From: Candidatus Omnitrophota bacterium
GTDB lineage: Bacteria; Omnitrophota; Gorgyraeia; Gygaellales; Profunditerraquicolaceae
Length of the DNA stretch: 51,669 bases
Direction: 5' to 3'
Assembly (NCBI GenBank): GCA_026387265.1
Contig: JAPLLZ010000054.1
Coordinates: 1-51,669, forward strand
A model generated the notes under the pieces. The model did no database searches and was not told the origin of the DNA. It saw nothing but the letters and a program-made list of their open reading frames with translations. Of this stretch, positions 1-14,442 are shown in pieces. The stretch's first letter is position 1. Each line of letters starts with the position of its first letter. Both the position numbers and the translations under genes were made by a program.

Positions 1-3000
1 ATAGAAGATATCCGCCGTACCCATGCTACCTTTATATAGCCAGGTAATATTTTTATCCGTCGCCCCAACTAACCAGTTCTGGCTGGCATCCGGCTGCTGA
101 ATGGTGAATGAACCGATGATATCAAAACTGGCACTGGTGCCGTAGACATTGACATTACCGTTATCTACCACCCTAACCTTAATATCATCACTAATCGCAT
201 CGGGGATATTGTTCCAGGTATAATTTTGTGTCGCATCCACAGTACCGGTATCATTAATGACATTGGTAAATTCACCTGCATTTTTAGAATAATACAATTT
301 AACGTAGGAGACTTTAGTGGAACCATTTAAGCTCCAGGCAATGGTGTTAGAGTTAGAGCCGACCACTAAATTTACATCCTGGGCCGGCTGGCTTACGGTT
401 ATCTTAGGTCTCATAGAGAAGGCCGCCGCAGATACACCATACACATCCGGATATCTTAATGGGTCAGCATCAGATACCCTAATAAAACAGGTCTCGGAAT
501 TCTCATCGGCAACTGAGGTCCAAGTATAAGAGTTAGCTCCAGGAAGATGTCCGCTATGATCAGCAATAATTGTACTCAAGCCCCCCGTGGGGGTAGTTTT
601 ATATTCAATTTTTACATTAGAGATTGTTCCATATTCATACCAGCTGATATCTTTGGAATCTCCTTTATACCAGACCTGGCCGCCGTTAGGAACAATATCG
701 GTAATCGCACCCAATATTTTTATAGCATTAGCACAAACAGCAGCAACATTGACATCGGCAGAATGGCTTATTCTAACTTTTACACTATTACTGACCGCAT
801 CAGGAATTTCCCAATCAAATGTTTTTTGAACATTATGAGCAGAGTTAGCCACTTCCTGAATTAAATGCGTCTGGCCTTCATCGCTAAAACCGTTCGTAGA
901 ATATTCTACTTTAATCGGAGAATATGTTCCTTGTGGAGTCCATTTGATCTGATGAGTTGAACCAACTGCCCATTTCAACCCGGATTCAATCGGCTCATTC
1001 ATAACAATTTTACCTTCAATCTCAAAGGCATCACTCTCTGCGAATACCTCGGTATTATTCACTTGTTCTATCCGCACCTTAGCTGCTTTGGCATTATTAG
1101 TGATTGAATCCAGAGGCAAACTAAATCCCGCGTATGGGCTGGCGTTAAAAGCAACAGTAGCTACAGCAGTTCCCCAGGGAGGATTACCGGTTTTAGAAAA
1201 ATAAATACTTACATTACCCATCGGCGCGGTACCCAGAGTAGTCCAGGCAATCGAGAATGGATCACTGATATGGCCGATCGTAGCAGTAGTCGGAGCAGTA
1301 ATACTGATCCCGCTTTTAACCATAAAGCTCGGGCTGGGACAATAGACTACGGCATATCCGGCATCCGATACTTTAATTTTAGCACCAGCGGCGGATAGTA
1401 TATCCTGATTTGTAGGAATGCTCCAATCATACGGGCTAAGCGCAGAACCACGGGAAGCAACAATGTTATAAGCATAAAGATCTGCACCGTTATCCTTGGA
1501 ATAATCGATACGGACATTATCTACTATGCCGGTAACTGACCAAGCGATATTGTTATTGCTTGTACCAATCGTCCATTTATCCGTAGCAATAGGCGAAGTA
1601 ACCGCGATAATTGCACGGACTTCAAAAGTTGCAGATATTGCCCGGGTTGCTTCTTCGTTATTCGGATCAGATATTCTTAACTTACAAGTTTTGGAATTAG
1701 TCGTAATAGGAACTGACCAGTTATACTCACCTGTGTTATCAAATAACCCAGTGCCTCCTCCTATATTATTATAGGCAATGCCATCTGTGGAGAACTCTAG
1801 TTTTATCTGAGGAATATTTGTTCCAGTCTTGCTCCATTTAACCAAATAGCTTGAACCAGCGGGTAAAACTTCTCCATCTGCCGGGCCAGGATCATTAAAG
1901 GTAAATGATCCCTTAATCTTAAAGGCCACACTTTCATCTAATTCTTTATTAGGATTACCAACAGAGGTAACTTTTACTTTTACGCTATTTGATACTGAAT
2001 CAGGTATAGACGGAGACCATGTCCAGCTTCCTGAACCGCCCGTACCTTTAGAAATACCTGTAGCGATCGGATCGCCATAACCAGTACCGTAATCATAGTA
2101 AACATTTACATCTGATATGCTTCCTGTATATAACCAGGTAATATTTTTATCCGTAGACCCCACTGTCCAGTTAGAAGTATCATTTGGCTGCTGAACAGTA
2201 ATGGAACCAATAATGTTAAAAACCGCAGACAAACCAAAAACATTGGGATTACCCGTCCCTCCAGTTTTATCCACAACCTTAACTACCGTAGTGCCTCCAA
2301 GATTATCCGGGATGCTGCTCCAATTACAAGTCCCTAACGTCGCATCAACTCCAGTAAGAATCGTCTTATCAAACGGACCGCTTATACCATTGGTGCTAAA
2401 AAGCACATCCACATTTGAAACTTTGGCTGAACCATTTAAGCTCCAGACAATGGCATTACTATAAGAAGTCCCCACAATAAAATCCGCCCCCAGTACCGGC
2501 TTGCTTACGCTGATTACCGGCCGCATGGAAAACGGCGCCGCAGACTCAATCGGTATCGCTAAATTATTGTGGTCGCTTATTTTAATATAGCAATCTTCAC
2601 TGTTGATATCCGGCACGACCGGCCAGATATATTGATTGCTGCCGACACTATGCCCGGGATCATTAAGTACAATAACACCATCGTAACTTCCGCTAAAAGA
2701 AGTTTTATATTTAATATCTACATTAGTAATCGTGCCACTGGCCGTCCAGGAAATAGTTTTATTGGTTTCATCTTTATACCAAATCTGGCCGCCGTTAGGG
2801 CTCATCGCCGTAAAAGCGCCTTTAATGGTAAATGGATTATCGCTGGCATCACTCACTGGTAAACCGCCGATACTAGTCAAGCGTAGATAAACAGTATTGC
2901 GGATAAAATCAGGAACTTCCCAGGGAAATGGTAATGTCGCAGATGGCCAACCAGGATGCGCAGTATGTAAATCCGTAGCAAAAGTCGGATCCGTAGAATA

Positions 3001-6000
3001 TTCAATTTTTAAATTACCAATAGTCCCAGTCTTCTCCCAAGTTACATCAAAATTCGCACCGACCGCTAAAGTATTATAGCCATTGGGATCCGTAAGCAGT
3101 ATCGAGCCCTTAATATAGTTGTCCGCGGTAGTCTCTCCGAATACTTGCGCGTTACTCTTGTCCGAAACTTTAACTTTAGCAGTAGACGTAATCGTATCCG
3201 GAACCGTCCAGGCGTAAGTCTTAGTTCCGGCAGGCAAAGCACCCGCCTGATCAATAATAGAATGCCATAATGTTCCATCAAAATAATCAATCACATAACC
3301 CGGGATATTACCGTTAAAAGTCCACTCCAGAGTAAAAGGTTTACCGACGACTAACGTCTCGGCGTTCATCGGATGAACCATAAATATACTACCGATAATT
3401 GCGTTTTCCCCGGTAGAGATATCAATTACATCGTTGGCATTAGTTTTTTCATAAATACGCGCCTGAACCGTTGCGCTAGGATCATCAGGAATTGTCCAGT
3501 CAAATTCAGCCGTTGCCCCTGATGTTCCGGCATTAATATCTTCTGCACCAATCACATTCTTCCATTCGGTATGCCCGGAATCAGTAGAATATTCTATTTT
3601 ACATTTACCGAGCGTACCGGTAGGAATCCATTTAATTAGATAGTGATTGGTAATGGGCATATTCACATTGGCATTAGGCTGCACCAATTGTAAAACTCCC
3701 ATAATGGCAAATAACTGAGAATCGCTTTTTACAGTGCTATCGCCAACCTTAGATATCCGCACTACCGTATCACCATTAGGGCTATCTGGAATAGTCCAGC
3801 CATATTTTAAAGAAGTAGGATCCAAATTATCGGCAATCGCCGGGGTCTCCCAAGTACTTCCGGCATCTAATGAATATTCTATCTTTATCTTCTCAACCTT
3901 ACCTTTAGGGGCCAGCCACTCAATATCCGGGCTTGCTTCAACCCGCCATTTAGAATTCGCGTCGGGCTTAGTAATCTCCAGGACCGGTTTAATCTTAAAA
4001 TCATTAGTACTAACTCCATATACGGTAGGTTCAGTTGAATCGCTCACCCGGATACGGCAGGTATCAGAAGTAACTAAAACATATTGTCCTGTGGGAATAG
4101 GCCAAGTATAAGGATGCGAGTTAGCGGCGCGTCCGGCCAGAACTTCAATAGGATAACCGCCTGTTCCGCTGGCCGTATCCAGATAAATATCAACGTTGGC
4201 GATGGTGCCGGTAAAACTCCAGTCGATATTATTAGATATGCCGTTTACCGTCCAGGTTTCGGGACTGCCGGGATTTTTCCCCGGAGCAACCAAAGTAACT
4301 GTGCCATGAACCGAGAAATCCGCAATTGATGCATCATTAACATATGTTGCATCAGAAACCTGCACAATCTTTACCCTATATTTATTACTGGTAGTATTAG
4401 GAACCGGCCAAGAATAGTGACAGATATGGCTGCCGTCTTCATTATTATTATAAGACTTAGTGGTAATTAAATTAGGATAACCGTCCAGGCCGCTGTTGGT
4501 ATCATAATATAAACTAATATTGCCAAGGGTACCGGTATATTTCCATTGGACATCAATAGGATCGCCGCCCACATGATAAGGAGCGCTATTATTAGGTGAG
4601 CCGCCCGGCTCAGGCGCCAAATCCAGAGAACCTTTGATCTGGAAGGCTTCTGATTCATCATTAACATCAGTATCGGTTTCCGCTTCAACCTTAATCTTAT
4701 TATCCACGTTAAGATCTACAGCATCTGGAACAGTCCAATTATAGTTAGGCAGCGAAGAATCTACACCGGTAGCAAAAGCCGCTCCGTAAGTTACGCCGTC
4801 AGGAGCAAAATAAAAAGCCAACGTGCCGATATCGCCGGTTTTAGACCAGGTGATCAGATGGCCTGAACCTACAATTAAAGCCGTGGCATTTTGATTGGAA
4901 TTATTAGGGCTGGTAATCGCCACCGTCCCCTTAACCTCAAAAGTATTTTCGGAAGTAATATTGATATCATTGGGGAAAGCATTGCTTTCCACGCGGATAC
5001 GCAATTTATCGCTAATCGGACAGGCTACCGGATCCCACAAATACCCATCAGCATTCAAAGTATTGGTAATAATCGTCCCAGTCGATCCGCCGTCGATGCT
5101 GTATTTTATATTTACCGTAGGCACATTACCTTGAGTAGTCCAGGTAATATTACGCTGCTCTCCTAAACGCCAAACCTGGCCGCCATTAGGCACCAAGTTA
5201 ATCAGGCGAGAACGTATGGTCAAAGGCTGCGCAGAAACAGAATTAATCGCTGAATCCGAGCTACTCACTACTTTGATTTTTACCTGGGTATTTTTACCAT
5301 TATCTCCGGCTTTAAAAGGATTACCATTGACTGGTAAAGTCCAAGTATAGGTACCATTACCTGTACCTGCTGGAATAGTATTGGTATTATCAATGACATT
5401 AATAAAAAGATCGTTGCCATTATCTTTAGAATAAAATAAATTTACTGTTCCTAATTGCCCGGTAACATTCCAATTTATCAGCTCTTCGGTTCCGCATAAC
5501 CAAGTTAGCGCCGAATCTCCAGAGTTAATCGAAGGACGCGTAAGTGTAACTGTCCCGCGGATAGTAAAATCATTTTCGCTTACTGAGAAAACTTCAGTAG
5601 CTTTTCCTGTTTGATAAACTTTAACGCGCGCTTCTTGTCCAACAATCCCGGCCACATCCGGTATCGTCCACTCATACGCCCCGAGGCTGGCATTTACGCC
5701 GTTAACGATAAAACCTTGATAGCCGTCAACACCACTATTGCCATCCCAGCGTAATTCCACCGTACCAAAGGTAGTCGGATTAGCAGTCCAGGTAATATTT
5801 AAAGGATCCCCGACAAATTTACTAATCCCGGTGGCTGTCGGATAAGTTAATTTAAGATAAGGAATTACTTTAAAAACCGAGGATGCACCGGCGGTTCCGG
5901 TGGTCAAATCCTCATCGCCGTCCAAAGCAACTTTAATTTTAACCGTGTCACTTCTGTGTGCAGGTAAAACCGTCCATTCGTAAGTTCTGGGAGTAGCAAT

Positions 6001-9000
6001 ATTTACTACGCCTTCGGTTAAAAGCACCGGCCAGGAAGTTCCTCCATCTAAGGAAAGGCGGATATCCGCGGTTCCGGTTATAGTACCAAAAGTAGTCCAG
6101 GTGATAACTTTGGTATTACCTTCCCCGGCATCAGTAACCCTTAAGATCTCATTAAGATGCGGCTCACCAACCGTAATGGTTCCTTTAATACTAAACGGGA
6201 CATCAGAATCATCATAAATATTCTCATTATCTTTATTGCAAACGCGGATTAAAACATTATTAGCGCCCAGATCATTAGGCACCGTCCAATTGAATGTCTG
6301 CATTACCTCCTGGGTACCGGCAGCAAGATTATTTTCCGGACGGGCATTTGCACAATAATTCCAAGAACCTGCCCCGACTTTATATTTAATCACCACATAA
6401 TCCATCGCGCCATGTATGGTCCATTTAATCGGTTTAACTTCATTATATCTCCAGATCTCTCCTCCAACAGGCTCATTCACAGTGATAGAAGCCTTCAAAT
6501 GGAAATCTGCGCTTACACCGTAAACCGTAGGATCATTTGCTTGCACGACTTTAATTTTAGAGGTGGGACTTGAACCGGTGACCGAAAGAGGAATATTCCA
6601 AATCCATGATCCACCCGCCGCATCAGTACCGGCAGCAACACTGCTGGCAATCGGCAATTCCCCATAAGTAAAACCAGCGTTACTGGAATAAAATATATTT
6701 ACTGTACCGTCGCTTGTGCCCCCTCCTAATAAACCCTTCTTAGACCAGGAAATCGTTTTAGTGTCTCCAGATAACCAAATCTCATCAGTAGTAGGAGAAA
6801 CATTATAAATATTGCCTTTTAAAGTAAAATTACTGGTGGGGCTTTCCACCAACCCGGCATCTCCGTAATTAAGAATAATTTTTAATTTATTCTGCGTGCC
6901 AATTAAATTCTCGCCGCCTAAACTTGATGGAATACCTGCCCAGCTCCAGGTGTTTCCGCTAGAACCGTCGTTGCCGGGAACAGCCACAGCCGTTAAGGTC
7001 TGGTTAAAATTGGTTCCGTCAGTAGACAACTTAATCGTGGCATTTGCCGGAGTGAGCCCGTTTAAGTTTCCATTCGTGGCCCAGGAAATATCATGCGTTT
7101 CTCCAATTAACCAGGTATTCGGAGGCTGGACAATAGTAAACTTTCCCCGGATGGAAAAATTAGCGTCTGAAACATCATAAAATCTGGTCGGCGTACCCGG
7201 ATCTTTATCAGAATCAATAACCCGCACCCTTAGCTGATTACCCACCAGATTACCGGAAGTGCTATAACTAGCCGGAACCGTCCATTCCCAACGCCCTTCA
7301 TTTTCTACGCTGGAGTTATTATTCACATCCAGCCCGGTAATTAAGGCCAAGGGAAGCCAGCTTGAGCCAGCGTTTGTCGAAAGTTCAATCCTTACTTTAT
7401 GTGCACCGTTAGTTCCCGTACCCAGCATACTCATCATATCGGCATACTTCCAGACAATATCGTGATTTTCACTTACCGCCCAACTTTCACCGCCGTTGGG
7501 GGAGATCACGGTAATCGGCGTCAACTCCGTGAGCGCCCAATTAAGCGTTACGTTACCAGTAGTTGTAGTATTAACGCGGGATATAGTAAAAGAATTCACC
7601 GTATCGGTTTCGCGAGCGGTATCTTCAAGTTGCCACTTGCCTAAAGTAGCATTGTAGCCAAATTTATTGACCGTCCCCAAGTAAGCACTCGCCACCCATA
7701 TTTTATCTAGGTCATTATCATATGCTATACCATACGGATACGAATCAGCAACTAATGAATCGATAACTTCCCCACTTTCAGGGTCAATTACGTCGACGAC
7801 ATTGGAGCCTTCGCACACCACCAACATCTTATTACGCGTACTATCCCAGGCCATCTGCCTGGGCATAAGATCAGTAGGTAAAGCATCAGTAGTAGAATTG
7901 GTAGTGACTGTAGCACGATTATCCGTCATAAATGCTCTGCGCACATAGTTACCGGTAGAGGAATTGACAATCGATGAGACTGCCCAGAGAGTATCCTGAG
8001 TCATACTGCCAACACCTTTAGTCGGCGCATAGAAAATCATAGCATAGTATTGATTTGTAGAACCAAAATCCGGGTTTAATGAACGATTACCATCCGAACA
8101 ACGAAACCTATATATATTGTCATCCAGCTCGGTGACCACCCACATGTAATTTGTGGCATCACTTGGCGTAGGATCATAACATATCCCGGTAGCGCGTCCT
8201 TGCGACCCGTTATAGTTAGTCACCGTATAAGGACTAGCATACATCATCTTGGAGGTAACTGGATAAGGAGTGGCCCCTGTATAATAGTTAGCAGTCCAGG
8301 CACAGTTTGTACTCGGATCCCAGGAAATATCGACGGGATTTTGCCCGACACTGTAGGTGCGCTCAAACGCCCCGGTTGAGGCATTTAGGCGCGTAACGGA
8401 ATTAGCAGAGTAATTGGCAATCCATATTGAACCGCCGCCATTAGTTACGGCAATCGGGTTGGTGCCGGTAGCGTAACTGCCGATTTTTGCTCCGGTGGCC
8501 GCGTTATATTTGGTAACGGTATTGGCCGCATAGTTGGTAACCCATACCGCCTTAGGATTAGTTGATGAATCATAACAAACTCCTTTTACGCTTAACTTTG
8601 TAAAACTCGGAGCAAAGCGTACCTCGTCATCATAGGTAGCAGTAGCTGTATCTGTCGGGCCTGATGTATTTATTATCGGGAACATGCGCATGGTATCAAT
8701 TACCGGGTTCAGTGTTGGATCTGCTGGACCAACTGAACCAGTGGCTACAGCTGTATCGTATACCGAACGAACATTAGTACCCTGATCCGTCATTTCCACC
8801 ACAAACCAATCTATAACAATATTAGAGCTTGCTACAGTTGCGGCGCGATCAAATTGTACTTGCGAAGCATTCAATATCTTACCCCGCACATTATCATATG
8901 CCTCTACACCGACAACATACCTATTTGATCTATAAGTATAGATTAAAAATGCATGGTCTAGATTAGTAATATCAGGGTCAGCGTGGCCGGGATTTATATT

Positions 9001-9492
9001 TTGCGTTTTTGTAGTATCAGCCGCTGCCAAAACCGTCTCCCCGGCCGTCACAATCGCTCCATCAGTAAATTCCACCACCTGCCAAACCACATTTACCGTT
9101 CTAGCATAAACCGTAGTGCCGTATTGCGTAGAATCACGTTGAAGATGCAATGTACTTTTATTGGGAATATCAGCGCTGATTTGGGCAATCTGTTCGCAAT
9201 CACTTCTGGCAAAATTCGCACGGGCCTGAACAATGGCAAACGCCTGGTAATTATCGGCCAGATCCGAAGTGAGAGTAATGGTTTTTTGGGTATACGCCGG
9301 GTTAGTCACTGCTCCCGGAGAAAAAGCACTTATCCCGCGCTGAACATTGACTCCTGAGGCAAATTCAACTACTACATAAGTCACGTTGCAGGCGACAGTG
9401 GCATAATCGCGCGAAATAATTAATTTACTATCGGATTCAAAAACAGCAGTAAATAAAACATTGCGACTGTATTGGTGGTATTGGACGCCGGG
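1..9492 (-). CDS. Giant adhesin-like surface protein, main reading frame (>3,160 codons, 3' end outside the window): 3-4 N-terminal beta-sandwich repeats, a beta-propeller (about 8600-7650), then about 24 tandem ~100-aa Ig-like modules
   Basis: Manual minus-strand translation gives coherent protein in the same frame at 9468, 8760, 8520, 540 and 1 (e.g. VNVVWQVVEF, AVWVTNYAANTVTKYN, ITVISPNGGESW, NWLVGATDKNITWLY). The ORF track has no in-frame stop-terminated ORF here, consistent with a frame that stays open to base 1. Confidence 0.9.
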
Positions 9493-9698
9493 CTAGGATA
9501 TAGCAAGACCATTGTCTTAGACTGATTTACTGATTGTATATCTATTACCTGCGAGATATCATCAGAACCGAAATAAACTGAACCCATCTGCGACCGCTTA
9601 ACCTGGGCGGCCTGCGCATTATTAACCAAAAAAAGCATTACCACTAAACTCAAGGCTAAAGGTAATTTTCTAAATTTTTTAATAAAATTAAGCCACAT
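9420..9698 (-). CDS. N-terminal segment of the giant protein (Sec signal peptide plus half of the first repeat), cut off from the main frame by a -1 frameshift
   Basis: ATG at 9698 lies 1 nt after the upstream TAA. MWLNFIKKFRKLPLALSLVVMLFLVNNAQA is a signal peptide with an AQA cleavage motif. The frame stops at TAA 9420 while the -1 frame completes the repeat (SRNVLFTAVFESDSKLIISR...VVVEF). Confidence 0.8.
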   Translation of the reverse strand: MWLNFIKKFRKLPLALSLVVMLFLVNNAQAAQVKRSQMGSVYFGSDDISQVIDIQSVNQSKTMVLLYPSPASNTTNTVAMFYLLLFLNPIVN

Positions 9699-9699
9699 T

Positions 9700-10176
9700 T
9701 TATTTTTTTGGCCCTTCTTCTTTAGGAAGCTGCGTTCCAAATGGCACAATTTCCTCAAAAGACTGCAACTCTTTTGACACAGGACTCATAAACCTAACTA
9801 CCCTGGCTAATTTAGTCAACACCCTAGTTTTGCTTCTCTCTTCACCGTTAACTGTCTCTTTGGAAACTTCAGATATCTCTGCATATTTTATCCAAACACC
9901 CTCTCCGGGAATAATCTCTTTCAGGCTATTCTTGCGTTCCACTTTAGTGTCTTTATCAATGGTCAAGGCCATTTCATAAGATGTTCTTTTATCCAACCCG
10001 TAATTAATGGCAATAAAATTAGAGGTAATGGCCACTACCTTGCCTTCTAAAATTTTCTCTTGGGTTACTTTTTTAGGTTTGTTAGCTTCTAAAGGCTCTT
10101 CAGTAAATCCCAGGCTCTTTATACCTAAAACTAAAACCAGCACCAATACCAATTTAATGATTCTTAAGCCTATCAC
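9700..10176 (-). CDS. Exported hypothetical protein (small OB-fold/DUF5666-like)
   Basis: ORF 9700..10191. The more likely start is GTG at 10176, after a GGAGGGG Shine-Dalgarno and overlapping the upstream TAG (TAGTG). Hydrophobic N-terminus; LEGKVVAI...IDKDTKV...GEGVWIKY pattern. Confidence 0.65.
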   Translation of the reverse strand: MIGLRIIKLVLVLVLVLGIKSLGFTEEPLEANKPKKVTQEKILEGKVVAITSNFIAINYGLDKRTSYEMALTIDKDTKVERKNSLKEIIPGEGVWIKYAEISEVSKETVNGEERSKTRVLTKLARVVRFMSPVSKELQSFEEIVPFGTQLPKEEGPKK

Positions 10177-11441
10177 TATTTTCCCCTCCAATACTCACCG
10201 GTAAATGTAAAATCCTGCACGGCTAAGCCTTCTTTACGTAAGCTTAAAACACCCTTCATTTTACCATCAGAACTAATATCTGCTCGCCATAGTGCTATTC
10301 CTGTAGGAGCCGCTTGCATCGTCTCCCAAATAATTTTTCCGCTCTCTCCGTTTCTTATGGAATAATTTGAAGAGGCGAATTTTTTCTGTTCTAAGTTTGT
10401 CGAAATAAATTTTTTCTGAGAAAAAGTCAGGGTGTCGGTTTGCGCGGCGCCTCCGGAAGCTGGTGTAAGAGTAATCTGCCAGATGGTGCCTTCCAAGGCT
10501 TCCTGCGGTTTTGGCGTTGAACGAACAACCGGCTGTGCCTCTGCTACTTTTACAGAAGCAGAAGTTTTATCCAGGTTTAAAAAAACCGGTTTGCTCTCTT
10601 TAGCTGTAACCGCACGCTCTTCATTTAGAATAACGCCTTTATTTCCCTTAAGCGCAAACTTAGCTACTAAGGTCAACCCTAATCCTACCAATGCCACCAC
10701 TAAAATTGTAGTGCCGACTTTTAATCCCGGGCCTTTTACCGGCTCTTTAGTTTCATTATCGCCTGCTTTTTCATCTTGGCTTTCTTTATTTATGAATTCA
10801 GCCCTAACCCGATTCTGAAATTCCACTCCCCCTAAAACTCCTTTTTTCTGCAGGGCATTATGCAGATCTAAATCCCCAGCCTTGATTAATTCTTGCATAA
10901 ACTGTTCATATGTTTTCTGTCCCAATAAATTCAAAATTATATTTCTTTCTTCCTGCATAAATTCCTGCATGGGCATCTCTTTATTTATATAAAGAGAATA
11001 GCTGGTGTAAGGATAATCTTTTGCGGAAAAAACCAGGTTGAGTTTTTGCGGATTTAAATGAATATACGCGGTAAGTTTTAAAAGATAGGAATCCTTTTCC
11101 ACCAGGGCAGTTTTAAACCTGTCTCTAAAGAGATGGCCTTTTCTACCGTATTTGCCATTAAAGTATTTAGTGTAAGAAGAATTCAGCCCATGCATAATCT
11201 CCGAAATTCCTCCCTTAAAATCTTCCTGGTCCTGATCAGGTAATTCTAATAGAAGATGAAAATGGCTCGGAAGTAGAGCGTAAGCATATAATTTAAATTT
11301 ATATTGTTCTTTGTATTTTTTTAATAATTCAAAATACGCATTGTAATCTGACTCTTCCTTAAATATATCCTGATTATAAATACAGCGGCTGGTTATGTAA
11401 TAGAGTGCATCTTCTAATGATATTCTCGGTGGTCTTGGCAT
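10176..11441 (-). CDS. REP-associated tyrosine transposase (RAYT/Y1 HUH) domain fused to a transmembrane helix and an exported beta-domain
   Basis: N-terminal motifs MPRPPRI, YYITSR..NQDIF, SHFHLL (HUH), YFNGKYGRKGHLFRDRF and YIHLNP (catalytic Tyr). TM segment TTILVVALVGLGLTLVAKFAL. C-terminal domain paralogous to 13858..14442. Confidence 0.9.
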   Translation of the reverse strand: MPRPPRISLEDALYYITSRCIYNQDIFKEESDYNAYFELLKKYKEQYKFKLYAYALLPSHFHLLLELPDQDQEDFKGGISEIMHGLNSSYTKYFNGKYGRKGHLFRDRFKTALVEKDSYLLKLTAYIHLNPQKLNLVFSAKDYPYTSYSLYINKEMPMQEFMQEERNIILNLLGQKTYEQFMQELIKAGDLDLHNALQKKGVLGGVEFQNRVRAEFINKESQDEKAGDNETKEPVKGPGLKVGTTILVVALVGLGLTLVAKFALKGNKGVILNEERAVTAKESKPVFLNLDKTSASVKVAEAQPVVRSTPKPQEALEGTIWQITLTPASGGAAQTDTLTFSQKKFISTNLEQKKFASSNYSIRNGESGKIIWETMQAAPTGIALWRADISSDGKMKGVLSLRKEGLAVQDFTFTGEYWRGK

Positions 11442-11456
11442 TCTTTACCTTCTTTT

Positions 11457-11485
11457 ACCTGGCACTTTTCATTTGTGCCTGACAC
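11457..11485. repeat. REP-like hairpin immediately upstream of the RAYT-fusion start codon
   Basis: ACCTGGCAC-TTTTCATTT-GTGCCTGACAC: GGCAC/GTGCC arms plus the quasi-palindrome GTGCCTGACAC, 16 nt from the ATG. Only one copy seen in the window. Confidence 0.45.
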
Positions 11486-11500
11486 TTTTTATAATTTTAC

Positions 11501-11530
11501 AAAAAAAACCAGCCATTTTTCCTGGCTGGT
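11501..11530 (-). terminator. Intrinsic terminator (riboswitch expression platform)
   Basis: ACCAGCCA-GGAAAAA-TGGCTGGT followed by a T run, located between the aptamer and the RAYT-fusion gene. Confidence 0.85.
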
Positions 11531-11559
11531 ATTAGTTAGCTGCTTTTAAACTTTTAAAT

Positions 11560-11640
11560 TCTAGCAACCTGCCAATCCTTAAACCTAGGATGCACGGCTT
11601 TGCGTCCCTCAATCTCTTGAGGTTTGCCCTTCGAACTATT
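11560..11640 (-). ncRNA. c-di-GMP-I (GEMM) riboswitch aptamer
   Basis: Minus strand reads GGGCAAACC-TCAA-GAGA-TTGA-GGGACGCAAAGCC...GGCAGGTTGC, matching the GGCAAACC / GNRA-capped P2 / GGGACGCAAAGCC hallmark of the class I c-di-GMP aptamer. Confidence 0.92.
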
Positions 11641-11656
11641 TTTTCTTTCTGGTAAA

Positions 11657-11686
11657 AATATAACATATTTTAAGGCGTTTTACCAA
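11657..11686 (-). promoter_or_regulatory. Candidate sigma70 promoter for the riboswitch leader
   Basis: TTGGTA-18 nt-TATATT with an extended -10 TG, overlapped by the inverted repeat TGGTAAAA/TTTTACCA. Confidence 0.4.
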
Positions 11687-13857: not shown

Positions 13858-14442
13858 TTATTGATTAATAACAGCTTCAGACGCTGCTGGCTCCACTACT
13901 GCCGGAATAGGCTCTACTACAGCCGCCGGAGGCGGCACTACTGCGGCCTTATTCGACGCCAAGCTATAGAAATTAAAGTCCGAAACTCTATTTTTCTTAT
14001 CTCGAATACTCAAAACCCCCCGCATTATCCCGTCGCTACCTATATCGCCACGCCAAAAAGCTGCGCCTTCTTTCTCTGAAACTTGCATCGTTTCCCAGGT
14101 ATAGGTCTCCCCATCTTCTAACAAGCGCATAGAAAAATTAGTAGCCTCAAACCCCCTAACCACCATGTTTTTAGAACTTACTTTACCATCAATAAAACTT
14201 ACAACATCTTTTTCGGTTTTACCTTTACCAGACATTGCCTTAGTCTCAATAGCCCATTCTGTACCATTAAGCTCTAGTTTTTTCTTTGCGACCATATCTT
14301 GTGTTTTACTATTTAGTTTTTTTACAACAGGCGCAGCTGTCTTTTGCTCCGCTTCTCCTTTAGCAAACCACTCCGCAAAAACAGAACTTGAATTCATCGC
14401 CAAAAACCCTAAAACTACAAGCACCGAAAGCAATCTCTTCAT
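13858..14442 (-). CDS. Exported hypothetical protein; stand-alone paralogue of the RAYT-fusion C-terminal domain
   Basis: Signal peptide MKRLLSVLVVLGFLAMNSSSVFA. Shares L.GT.W.I, WETMQ, WR.DI.SDG.M.GVLS.R and DF.F with residues ~317-415 of 10176..11441. Confidence 0.8.
   Translation of the reverse strand: MKRLLSVLVVLGFLAMNSSSVFAEWFAKGEAEQKTAAPVVKKLNSKTQDMVAKKKLELNGTEWAIETKAMSGKGKTEKDVVSFIDGKVSSKNMVVRGFEATNFSMRLLEDGETYTWETMQVSEKEGAAFWRGDIGSDGIMRGVLSIRDKKNRVSDFNFYSLASNKAAVVPPPAAVVEPIPAVVEPAASEAVINQ

Follow-up and report, generated by a model that had tools for sequence, protein, structure and literature searches.

The leader at 11686-11442 on the minus strand is predicted to be a transcriptional class I c-di-GMP riboswitch that controls a giant-gene operon and probably shuts it when c-di-GMP is high. 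It lies in the window, the whole stretch of 51,669 nt analysed here, from contig JAPLLZ010000054.1 of the Candidatus Omnitrophota bacterium assembly GCA_026387265.1, where the operon occupies the minus strand. In the proposed mechanism, a strong promoter would yield an RNA whose first ~90 nt fold as a c-di-GMP aptamer, and a terminator placed 30 nt beyond the aptamer would decide whether RNA polymerase enters a three-gene operon, whose predicted products are a RAYT-like protein anchored in the membrane, a small partner protein and a secreted giant. Members of the phylum Omnitrophota are tiny and perhaps predatory, have mostly escaped cultivation and are known for giant genes, the regulation of which is poorly understood. 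A conserved c-di-GMP riboswitch ahead of giant-gene operons provides a concrete, testable input signal for the production of giant proteins, and the leader is a small RNA suited to in vitro assays, for which the organism need not be cultured. Related loci compared in this work are given L-numbers, the source genome is G000 and contigs carry C-numbers.

The preliminary description had recognized a c-di-GMP-I aptamer followed by an intrinsic terminator and had proposed a search with the Rfam covariance model. Both elements were confirmed. The search retrieved a full-length match to RF01051 (model positions 1-87) at 11560-11638 (-), with a score of 58.6 bits (E 5.7e-9; gathering score 35), and the terminator was found at 11530-11500 as an 8-bp stem followed by U8. 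The same RF01051 match was recovered in a search of the whole genome, and it is the only riboswitch match to Rfam within the window. The aptamer forms a three-helix junction, in which P1 pairs AGUUC (11637-11633) with GAAUU (11561-11557), P2 (11622-11607, CCUCAA-GAGA-UUGAGG) is capped by a GNRA loop, GAGA, and P3 is a hairpin at 11599-11566. The class core, GGCAAAC / GACGCAAAG / GCC, is represented in the window by the strands GGGCAAAC, GACGCAAAG and GC, and the core strands are invariant or nearly so in an alignment of 30 sequences. Within the clade of the window, P1 covaries, being GGUUUC/GAAACC in L053 and AUUUC/GAAAU in L006.

By consensus alignment, the ligand-contact nucleotides are canonical in the window. 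In what we take to be the Vc2 numbering, they are G20 (the G of aGGC), A47 (first A past GACGC, its position following from a comparison of the consensus sequences of RF03167 and RF01051) and C92 (first C of GCC). On sequence grounds, the aptamer of the window is an ordinary RF01051 member of the c-di-GMP class. That its ligand is instead a related dinucleotide, such as 3',3'-cGAMP, appears highly improbable. GEMM-I variants with altered specificity are established, a search in E-value mode also matched the window to the variant model RF03167 (51.6 bits), and the window clade carries GCU in place of GCC after P3. However, this match is under the family cut-off of 59, the window has the canonical A at the diagnostic position of RF03167 (GACGC-G-AAG), and G is retained at the G20 position. 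Moreover, the first C of GCC is invariant, and the altered second C is part of P1, a helix that forms again two bases later. The gene content of the genome also argues against a cGAMP-type ligand: the assembly (1.56 Mb, 87.5% complete) contains seven GGDEF matches, three of them full length, and 14 PilZ matches, so c-di-GMP is plausibly made and used by the host. No EAL match was retrieved in the 1.56-Mb genome. Two related loci, L015 and L023, were considered as members of the c-di-GMP-I-GGC variant and rejected, as the L015 alignment has the canonical A at the diagnostic position and the RF03167 model merely includes the P1 pairs.

Two further c-di-GMP-I riboswitches were detected in the source genome. 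One of them, at C48:46330-46418 (67 bits), precedes a giant gene of 3,935 aa at C48:46588-58395, the product of which shows only a weak Peptidase_C39 match. The other, at C49:1511-1589 (61.4 bits), is encoded on a 2-kb contig and is followed by two tandem terminators and then by a secreted protein of ~100 aa.

Association of the aptamer with the RAYT-like gene extends across the phylum. We retrieved 42 genome loci of this gene, of which 39 were scanned for the aptamer, and a match to the c-di-GMP-I clan at the gathering score was found in 30 (28 to RF01051 and two to RF03167), always on the strand of the gene and 85-280 nt upstream of it. Two of the loci without a match have no upstream sequence at all, and in most others inspection by eye revealed that an inserted hairpin splits the core strands; a U-run comes next and then, in most cases, the conserved repeat that we call the twin box (see below). 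A large hairpin is inserted after GGCAAAC in L017, L018, L019, L021 and L024, and inside the GACGCAAAG junction strand after P2 in L032 and L037; because of these insertions, the aptamers concerned score at or below the Rfam gathering score. L036 alone among the scanned genome loci is devoid of an aptamer. A covariance model, R1, built from 30 of the genome-locus aptamers found the aptamer in 56 of 80 metagenome loci; counting only the 68 with ~250 nt or more upstream, 54 have it, and most misses are short relatives that match the N-terminal part only. Scores range from 40 to 66 bits with Rfam and up to 90 bits with the family model. Every pocket position is retained, and the aptamer is found upstream of proteins with identities down to ~30-35%. 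In most loci with downstream sequence, the RAYT-like gene comes first and a homologue of the giant gene lies downstream, and the intervening ORF2 was detectable in 15 loci. In an even sample of the phylum, 84 of 151 genomes contain a RAYT-like match and only about a dozen the full-length fusion, indicating that the module is widespread, not universal.

The remaining elements of the leader are those of a transcriptional switch. A promoter scan identified a -35 element TTGGTA, an 18-nt spacer and an extended -10 element, TG-n-TATATT, at 11657-11686 (-), placing the predicted start of the transcript near 11650, ~12 nt ahead of the aptamer. Orthologous leaders have a near-consensus TTGACA-N17-T(G)nTATACT at the equivalent position. 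The terminator at 11500-11530 (-) begins 30 nt past the aptamer and consists of the stem-loop ACCAGCCA-GGAAAAA-UGGCUGGU (11530-11508; five of the eight pairs are G-C) and the U tract at 11507-11500; its stem-loop with one tail U folds at -13.3 kcal/mol. A hairpin with a U run is present 3' of the aptamer in nearly all orthologous leaders. The 271-nt leader as a whole folds better than its shuffled versions (z = -4.8; 0 of 200 shuffles equally good). A Shine-Dalgarno sequence, GAAGG, is located at 11452-11448, and three ORFs follow the leader without room for separate promoters.

Regarding the direction of the switch, the preliminary description had held that ON and OFF could not be told apart with confidence by eye. 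The comparative data allow an argument for an OFF switch at high c-di-GMP, a direction that we consider probable from the comparative evidence together with a kinetic argument. The clearest comparative evidence is found in the majority clade, to which the window does not belong. There, the 5' arm of the terminator always contains YCAGG, and the loop plus 3' arm usually reads GUUUGCCUG. The latter region (GUUUGCCU) is complementary to the invariant J1/2 strand of the aptamer, aGGCAAACu, over 8-10 contiguous bp in most leaders of this clade; across all leaders scored, including those of the window clade, the z value of this duplex against shuffles has a median of -2.3 and an extreme of -6.8. Compensatory changes are seen in L109, L107 and L083, where GGCAAAC::GUUUGCC becomes GGUAAAC with GUUUACC or GUUUAUC. 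In L038 and L083, furthermore, the next base of J1/2 is C, not U, and the terminator loop has G, not A. Among 42 distinct sequences, 80% of the cells pair in this register, compared with 36-55% when the register is slid, nine cells are changed on both sides, and none of 500 shuffles reaches the observed covariation score. Terminator loops of the GUCUGCC type pair perfectly with the 3' strand of P3, GGCAGAC. Both partners are strands of the ligand pocket, so the pairing is possible only without ligand, and it consumes part of the 3' arm of the terminator, so that read-through would be expected without ligand and termination with it. Complementarity and compensatory changes in the majority clade therefore point to an OFF switch. 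A resemblance between P2 and the terminator, with CUCAGG in both, was rejected as a general feature, being restricted to L010-like loci and hence lineage-specific.

In the clade of the window, the complementarity between J1/2 and the terminator loop is absent (z about 0), and a different element is found. At 11538-11569 (-), GGUUGCU pairs with AGCAGCU in an anti-aptamer hairpin capped by GAAUU/AGUUU. GGUUGCU comprises the base of the P3 3' strand and the C92 region, and the GAAUU of the apical mini-helix is the 3' strand of P1. This hairpin is part of the minimum free energy (MFE) structure in nine of ten unique leaders of the clade and of their RNAalifold consensus. In the window itself, it zips on through pairing of CUAAU with AUUGG, of the terminator 5' arm with the P3 loop and of the 3' arm with the P3 5' strand, so that the unconstrained MFE structure (-42.2 kcal/mol) is a single long hairpin into which P3 and the terminator are both absorbed, compared with -32.6 kcal/mol for the state with aptamer and terminator, before any ligand energy. 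The full terminator stem forms with a probability of 0.30 when the aptamer is left free, and this rises to 0.84 when it is masked. As modelled, the fold of the window also points to OFF, less firmly than that of the majority clade because its siblings mostly do not show it: the strand swap between P3 and terminator is the MFE structure only in the window and L048, and not in siblings such as L004 and L005.

The same region of the window clade offers an ON reading, which we regard as unlikely. According to it, the hairpin GGUUGCU/AGCAGCU would form without ligand and leave the terminator free, and binding of the ligand would release AGCAGCUA, a mimic of the terminator 5' arm ACCAGCCA, to compete for the 3' arm; high c-di-GMP would then induce the giant surface protein. 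In most leaders of the clade the MFE structure does combine the anti-aptamer hairpin with the terminator, so that the ligand-free state terminates, and by hand AGCAGCUA can be paired with UGGCUG over ~6 contiguous positions. Induction would also be expected from known c-di-GMP regulons, in which many adhesins are induced by high c-di-GMP. However, the perfect 8-bp terminator is stronger than the mimic helix, which has a loop of 21 nt and would still abut the U tract, and the terminator stem probability with the aptamer masked is high, as given above. In addition, the covarying pocket-terminator pairing of the majority clade can oppose the terminator only without ligand. High c-di-GMP commonly means adhesion, and by analogy an OFF switch before an adhesin-like protein runs against this pattern.

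Folding energies contribute little to the preferred OFF assignment. At equilibrium, aptamer and terminator coexist in most relatives, and across the family the terminator state is favoured over the antiterminator state by 0-16 kcal/mol (median 6.4). Masking the aptamer barely shifts the terminator probability in most of 31 leaders, and none of the 31 exhibited a strong effect in the opposite direction. With equilibrium coupling weak or absent and the antiterminator less stable, the OFF call rests on complementarity and covariation, not on energies, and, as equilibrium favours the terminator state, it needs kinetic (co-transcriptional) control. Such control is conceivable, since the terminator loop would emerge, and could be captured, before the remainder of the 3' arm is made. 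Without ligand, J1/2 (aGGCAAACu) would pair with GUUUGCCU in the majority clade, and in the window the anti-aptamer hairpin would extend into the P3/terminator strand swap; in both cases the polymerase would read through. With c-di-GMP bound, these strands would be locked in the aptamer, the terminator would form and the operon would be shut.

The first gene under this control (10176-11441, minus strand) encodes a protein of 421 aa composed of an HUH/Y1 domain, a TM helix and a beta-barrel. Residues 1-226 constitute a RAYT-like HUH/Y1 domain with a helical extension and contain the motifs HFH at 60-62 (H60-F-H62) and Y126-I-H128-L-N130-P. In 103 homologous sequences H60, Y126 and H128 are invariant, and H62, N130 and P131 nearly so. 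The N-terminal 150 residues match Pfam PF01797 (Y1_Tnp) at 5e-11, and the NCBIfam RAYT equivalog NF047646 is matched at 73.7 bits, below its cut-off of 80. The AlphaFold model of the protein has a pLDDT of 78, and the best PDB match of its HUH domain in Foldseek is 4ER8, the E. coli RAYT bound to a REP hairpin (E 2e-7; TM-score 0.73 normalized to 4ER8), which is also matched by profile (E 6.5e-4). A single hydrophobic, predicted TM helix spans residues ~243-265, in a low-confidence linker of the model, and residues 310-421 are modelled as an eight-stranded beta-barrel, predicted to be extracytoplasmic, that resembles the C-terminal barrel of fHbp only weakly. Pfam searches of residues 147-230 or of the C-terminal barrel, HTH families included, returned only noise at E <= 10. 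A free secreted paralogue of the barrel, 194 aa long, is encoded at 13858-14442 (-), with 41% identity over 108 aa (E 5e-22).

Homologues of the 421-aa protein number 953 at E <= 0.001; among the 120 listed, all named ones are Omnitrophota or Omnitrophica, and the majority align over nearly the full length. The source genome has one copy of the full-length fusion and one short RAYT-like paralogue, on C17. In the phylum sample, Omnitrophota genomes often contain several short RAYT-like paralogues (160-340 aa), and some relatives of the N-terminal part only, such as those of L095 and L105, also have an upstream riboswitch. No dispersed REP/REPIN repeats flank the RAYT-like gene, the sole candidate motif occurring twice, upstream and in direct orientation.

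The downstream genes are translationally coupled to the first. At the junction GGAGGGGAAAATAGTG, the stop codon TAG of the 421-aa ORF and the start codon GTG of ORF2 (10176) have one G in common, and GGAGG lies ahead of this start. ORF2 (9700-10176, minus strand) encodes a protein of 158-163 aa, 158 when counted from this GTG, which has a hydrophobic N-terminal segment and no Pfam match and is conserved within the operon. At the junction TAA-A-ATG (9702-9696), the ATG of the giant gene comes one base past the ORF2 stop. The giant secreted protein (1-9698, minus strand), with a predicted signal peptide, starts at ATG 9698, exceeds 3,200 aa and extends beyond the window. Relative to L005 and L007, in which the gene is continuous, its frame is broken by a 1-nt deletion near 9471, which had not been noted in the preliminary description and which splits it into a 92-aa signal-peptide ORF (ATG 9698) and a long ORF at 1-9384 in another frame. 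This deletion is either an assembly error or a recent inactivation.

Several claims of the preliminary description about these genes were substantiated. Both junctions that it had used to couple the three genes, the TAG/GTG overlap at 10176 and TAA-A-ATG at 9700/9698, were verified, and its assignment of the first gene to the HUH nuclease type agrees with the PF01797 match (5e-11), the fold match to 4ER8 and the invariant H60, Y126 and H128. It had also argued for host domestication, in favour of which we find the fusion of a RAYT fold with a TM helix and a barrel, the set of listed homologues, Omnitrophota or Omnitrophica wherever named and mostly aligned over nearly the full length, the same position in the operon before the giant gene in nearly every locus, the retention of the riboswitch down to ~30-35% identity and the restriction of the REP-like motif to the gene's own leader. 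The sequence comparisons support the RAYT-like HUH protein as a fixed host component of the operon and, probably, a clean case of transposase domestication.

The gene of this protein has an adjoining candidate cognate DNA box. The twin box, which had gone unmentioned in the preliminary description, is located between the terminator and the start codon, upstream of the Shine-Dalgarno sequence, and reads AAAGTGCCAGGCAC with a palindromic core, GTGCC-A-GGCAC. In the window, copy 1 (AAAGTGTCAGGCAC) is at 11475-11488 (-) and copy 2 (AAAGTGCCAGGTAA) at 11455-11468 (-), 20 nt after copy 1 and 5' of GAAGG. One or usually two copies are present in essentially all orthologous leaders, and 67 of the 80 box matches in the 406 kb of related loci fall in the 250 nt before the gene. 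Spacings from copy to copy cluster at 20-21, 30-32, 42, 53 and 62-63, with single cases of 137 and 197 and a few of 23-24, and their phase concentration peaks at a period of 10.5 nt (R = 0.72, mean phase ~0), which suggests a protein that would bind one face of B-DNA. The twin box is probably a DNA operator, a candidate second layer of control. Substitutions in the box are strand-asymmetric, C-to-T being common at palindrome positions and the mirror G-to-A almost absent; against a purely DNA reading, this asymmetry would fit a hairpin of the sense strand, as RNA or single-stranded DNA.

Other identities were considered for the box. It was rejected as a REP/REPIN element, since no dispersed copies were found, either in the 1.56-Mb assembly (at <= 1 mismatch, beyond chance) or in the 406 kb of related loci; the one additional exact copy (42952) falls within coding sequence. 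A sigma-54 promoter reading of GGCAC was also discarded, there being by eye no TTGC at the right distance, and Rfam returned no family for the box region even at E <= 5. Two full-length members of the family have the twin box and no riboswitch. In L036 (5780-6000), one copy overlaps the transcription start of a TTGACA-N17-TACACT promoter, and the other is 137 bp upstream. In L094, where the gene begins at 623, the boxes are at ~478-545 (-145 and -78).

These observations bear on a third reading of the leader, one that we judge quite unlikely, in which the terminator would be a largely constitutive attenuator, the aptamer would contribute little or be a relic in this clade, and the real control would reside in the twin box, either as the operator of a repressor roadblock or in the service of an internal promoter at the end of the U tract. 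It would account for the near absence of coupling between aptamer and terminator in equilibrium models of most loci and for a box that varies less than the riboswitch, is still present in the aptamer-less L036 and L094, flanks and overlaps the promoter in L036 and is spaced with a period of ~10.5 bp. However, strong purifying selection acts on the aptamer across loci with protein identities of only 30-40%, J1/2 and the terminator loop covary, and by eye there is no convincing -10 element downstream of the U tract.

In the preferred reading, with an OFF riboswitch and the twin box as a further layer, the obvious candidate for binding the box is the HUH domain encoded by the operon itself. We can tentatively extend this to a phylum-wide module for the control of giant genes, although such a module is doubtful as a whole: the twin box would be the cognate site of the first product, a RAYT-derived HUH domain converted into a membrane-tethered binder of specific nucleic-acid sites, and c-di-GMP would set the timing inversely. 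The HUH protein would then either regulate its own operon by feedback or tether the locus or its transcript to the membrane, so that the giant protein could be exported co-transcriptionally.

The aptamer class is already known, and the regulon that it heads was not found in the literature searched. No work linking Omnitrophota, c-di-GMP riboswitches and RAYT-like genes was retrieved, and the literature searched on giant genes of Omnitrophota mentions neither riboswitches nor c-di-GMP. The TnpA_Y1 superfamily, including RAYT, has been described by Quentin et al. 2018 (PMC6006769), with no membrane-anchored or riboswitch-linked subclass in that classification. Like RAYT/TnpA_REP proteins (4ER8), the 421-aa protein has the fold, the HUH histidines and the Y-x-H-x-N-P motif, is present as one full-length copy per genome, and is encoded next to a short palindromic motif. 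Unlike them, it is fused to a TM helix and a predicted extracytoplasmic beta-barrel, its gene is embedded in a riboswitch-controlled operon, and NF047646 is matched below the cut-off; instead of dispersed REP/REPIN elements, there are two direct repeats in its own leader only.

Membrane-tethered one-component regulators of the ToxR/CadC type resemble it in working mode only, with a cytoplasmic N-terminal domain of the nucleic-acid-binding type, a single TM segment and a C-terminal outer domain, and with direct-repeat boxes in the leader of the protein's own operon. The fold is HUH, not winged helix, binding to the box is hypothetical, and we claim no membership of that group.

For the RNA, the type example of c-di-GMP-I (GEMM-I) is Vc2 of Vibrio cholerae, and Cd1 of Clostridioides difficile is a transcriptional OFF switch before the flgB operon. 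The window differs from Cd1 in its host, an omnitrophote, and in its cargo, the first regulated gene being a membrane-anchored RAYT-like one followed by a giant gene. In the majority clade, J1/2 and not the 3' strand of P1 appears to be the aptamer strand that enters the antiterminator, the window clade has a separate anti-aptamer hairpin, and a twin box lies downstream of the terminator. In common with GEMM-I and Cd1, the leader has three helices, a GNRA loop on P2 and the core GGCAAAC / GACGCAAAG / GCC. It also shares with Cd1 an intrinsic terminator as expression platform and a position at the head of a very long cell-surface operon, and, being by its sequence probably shut by the ligand, it is closest to Cd1 in working mode.
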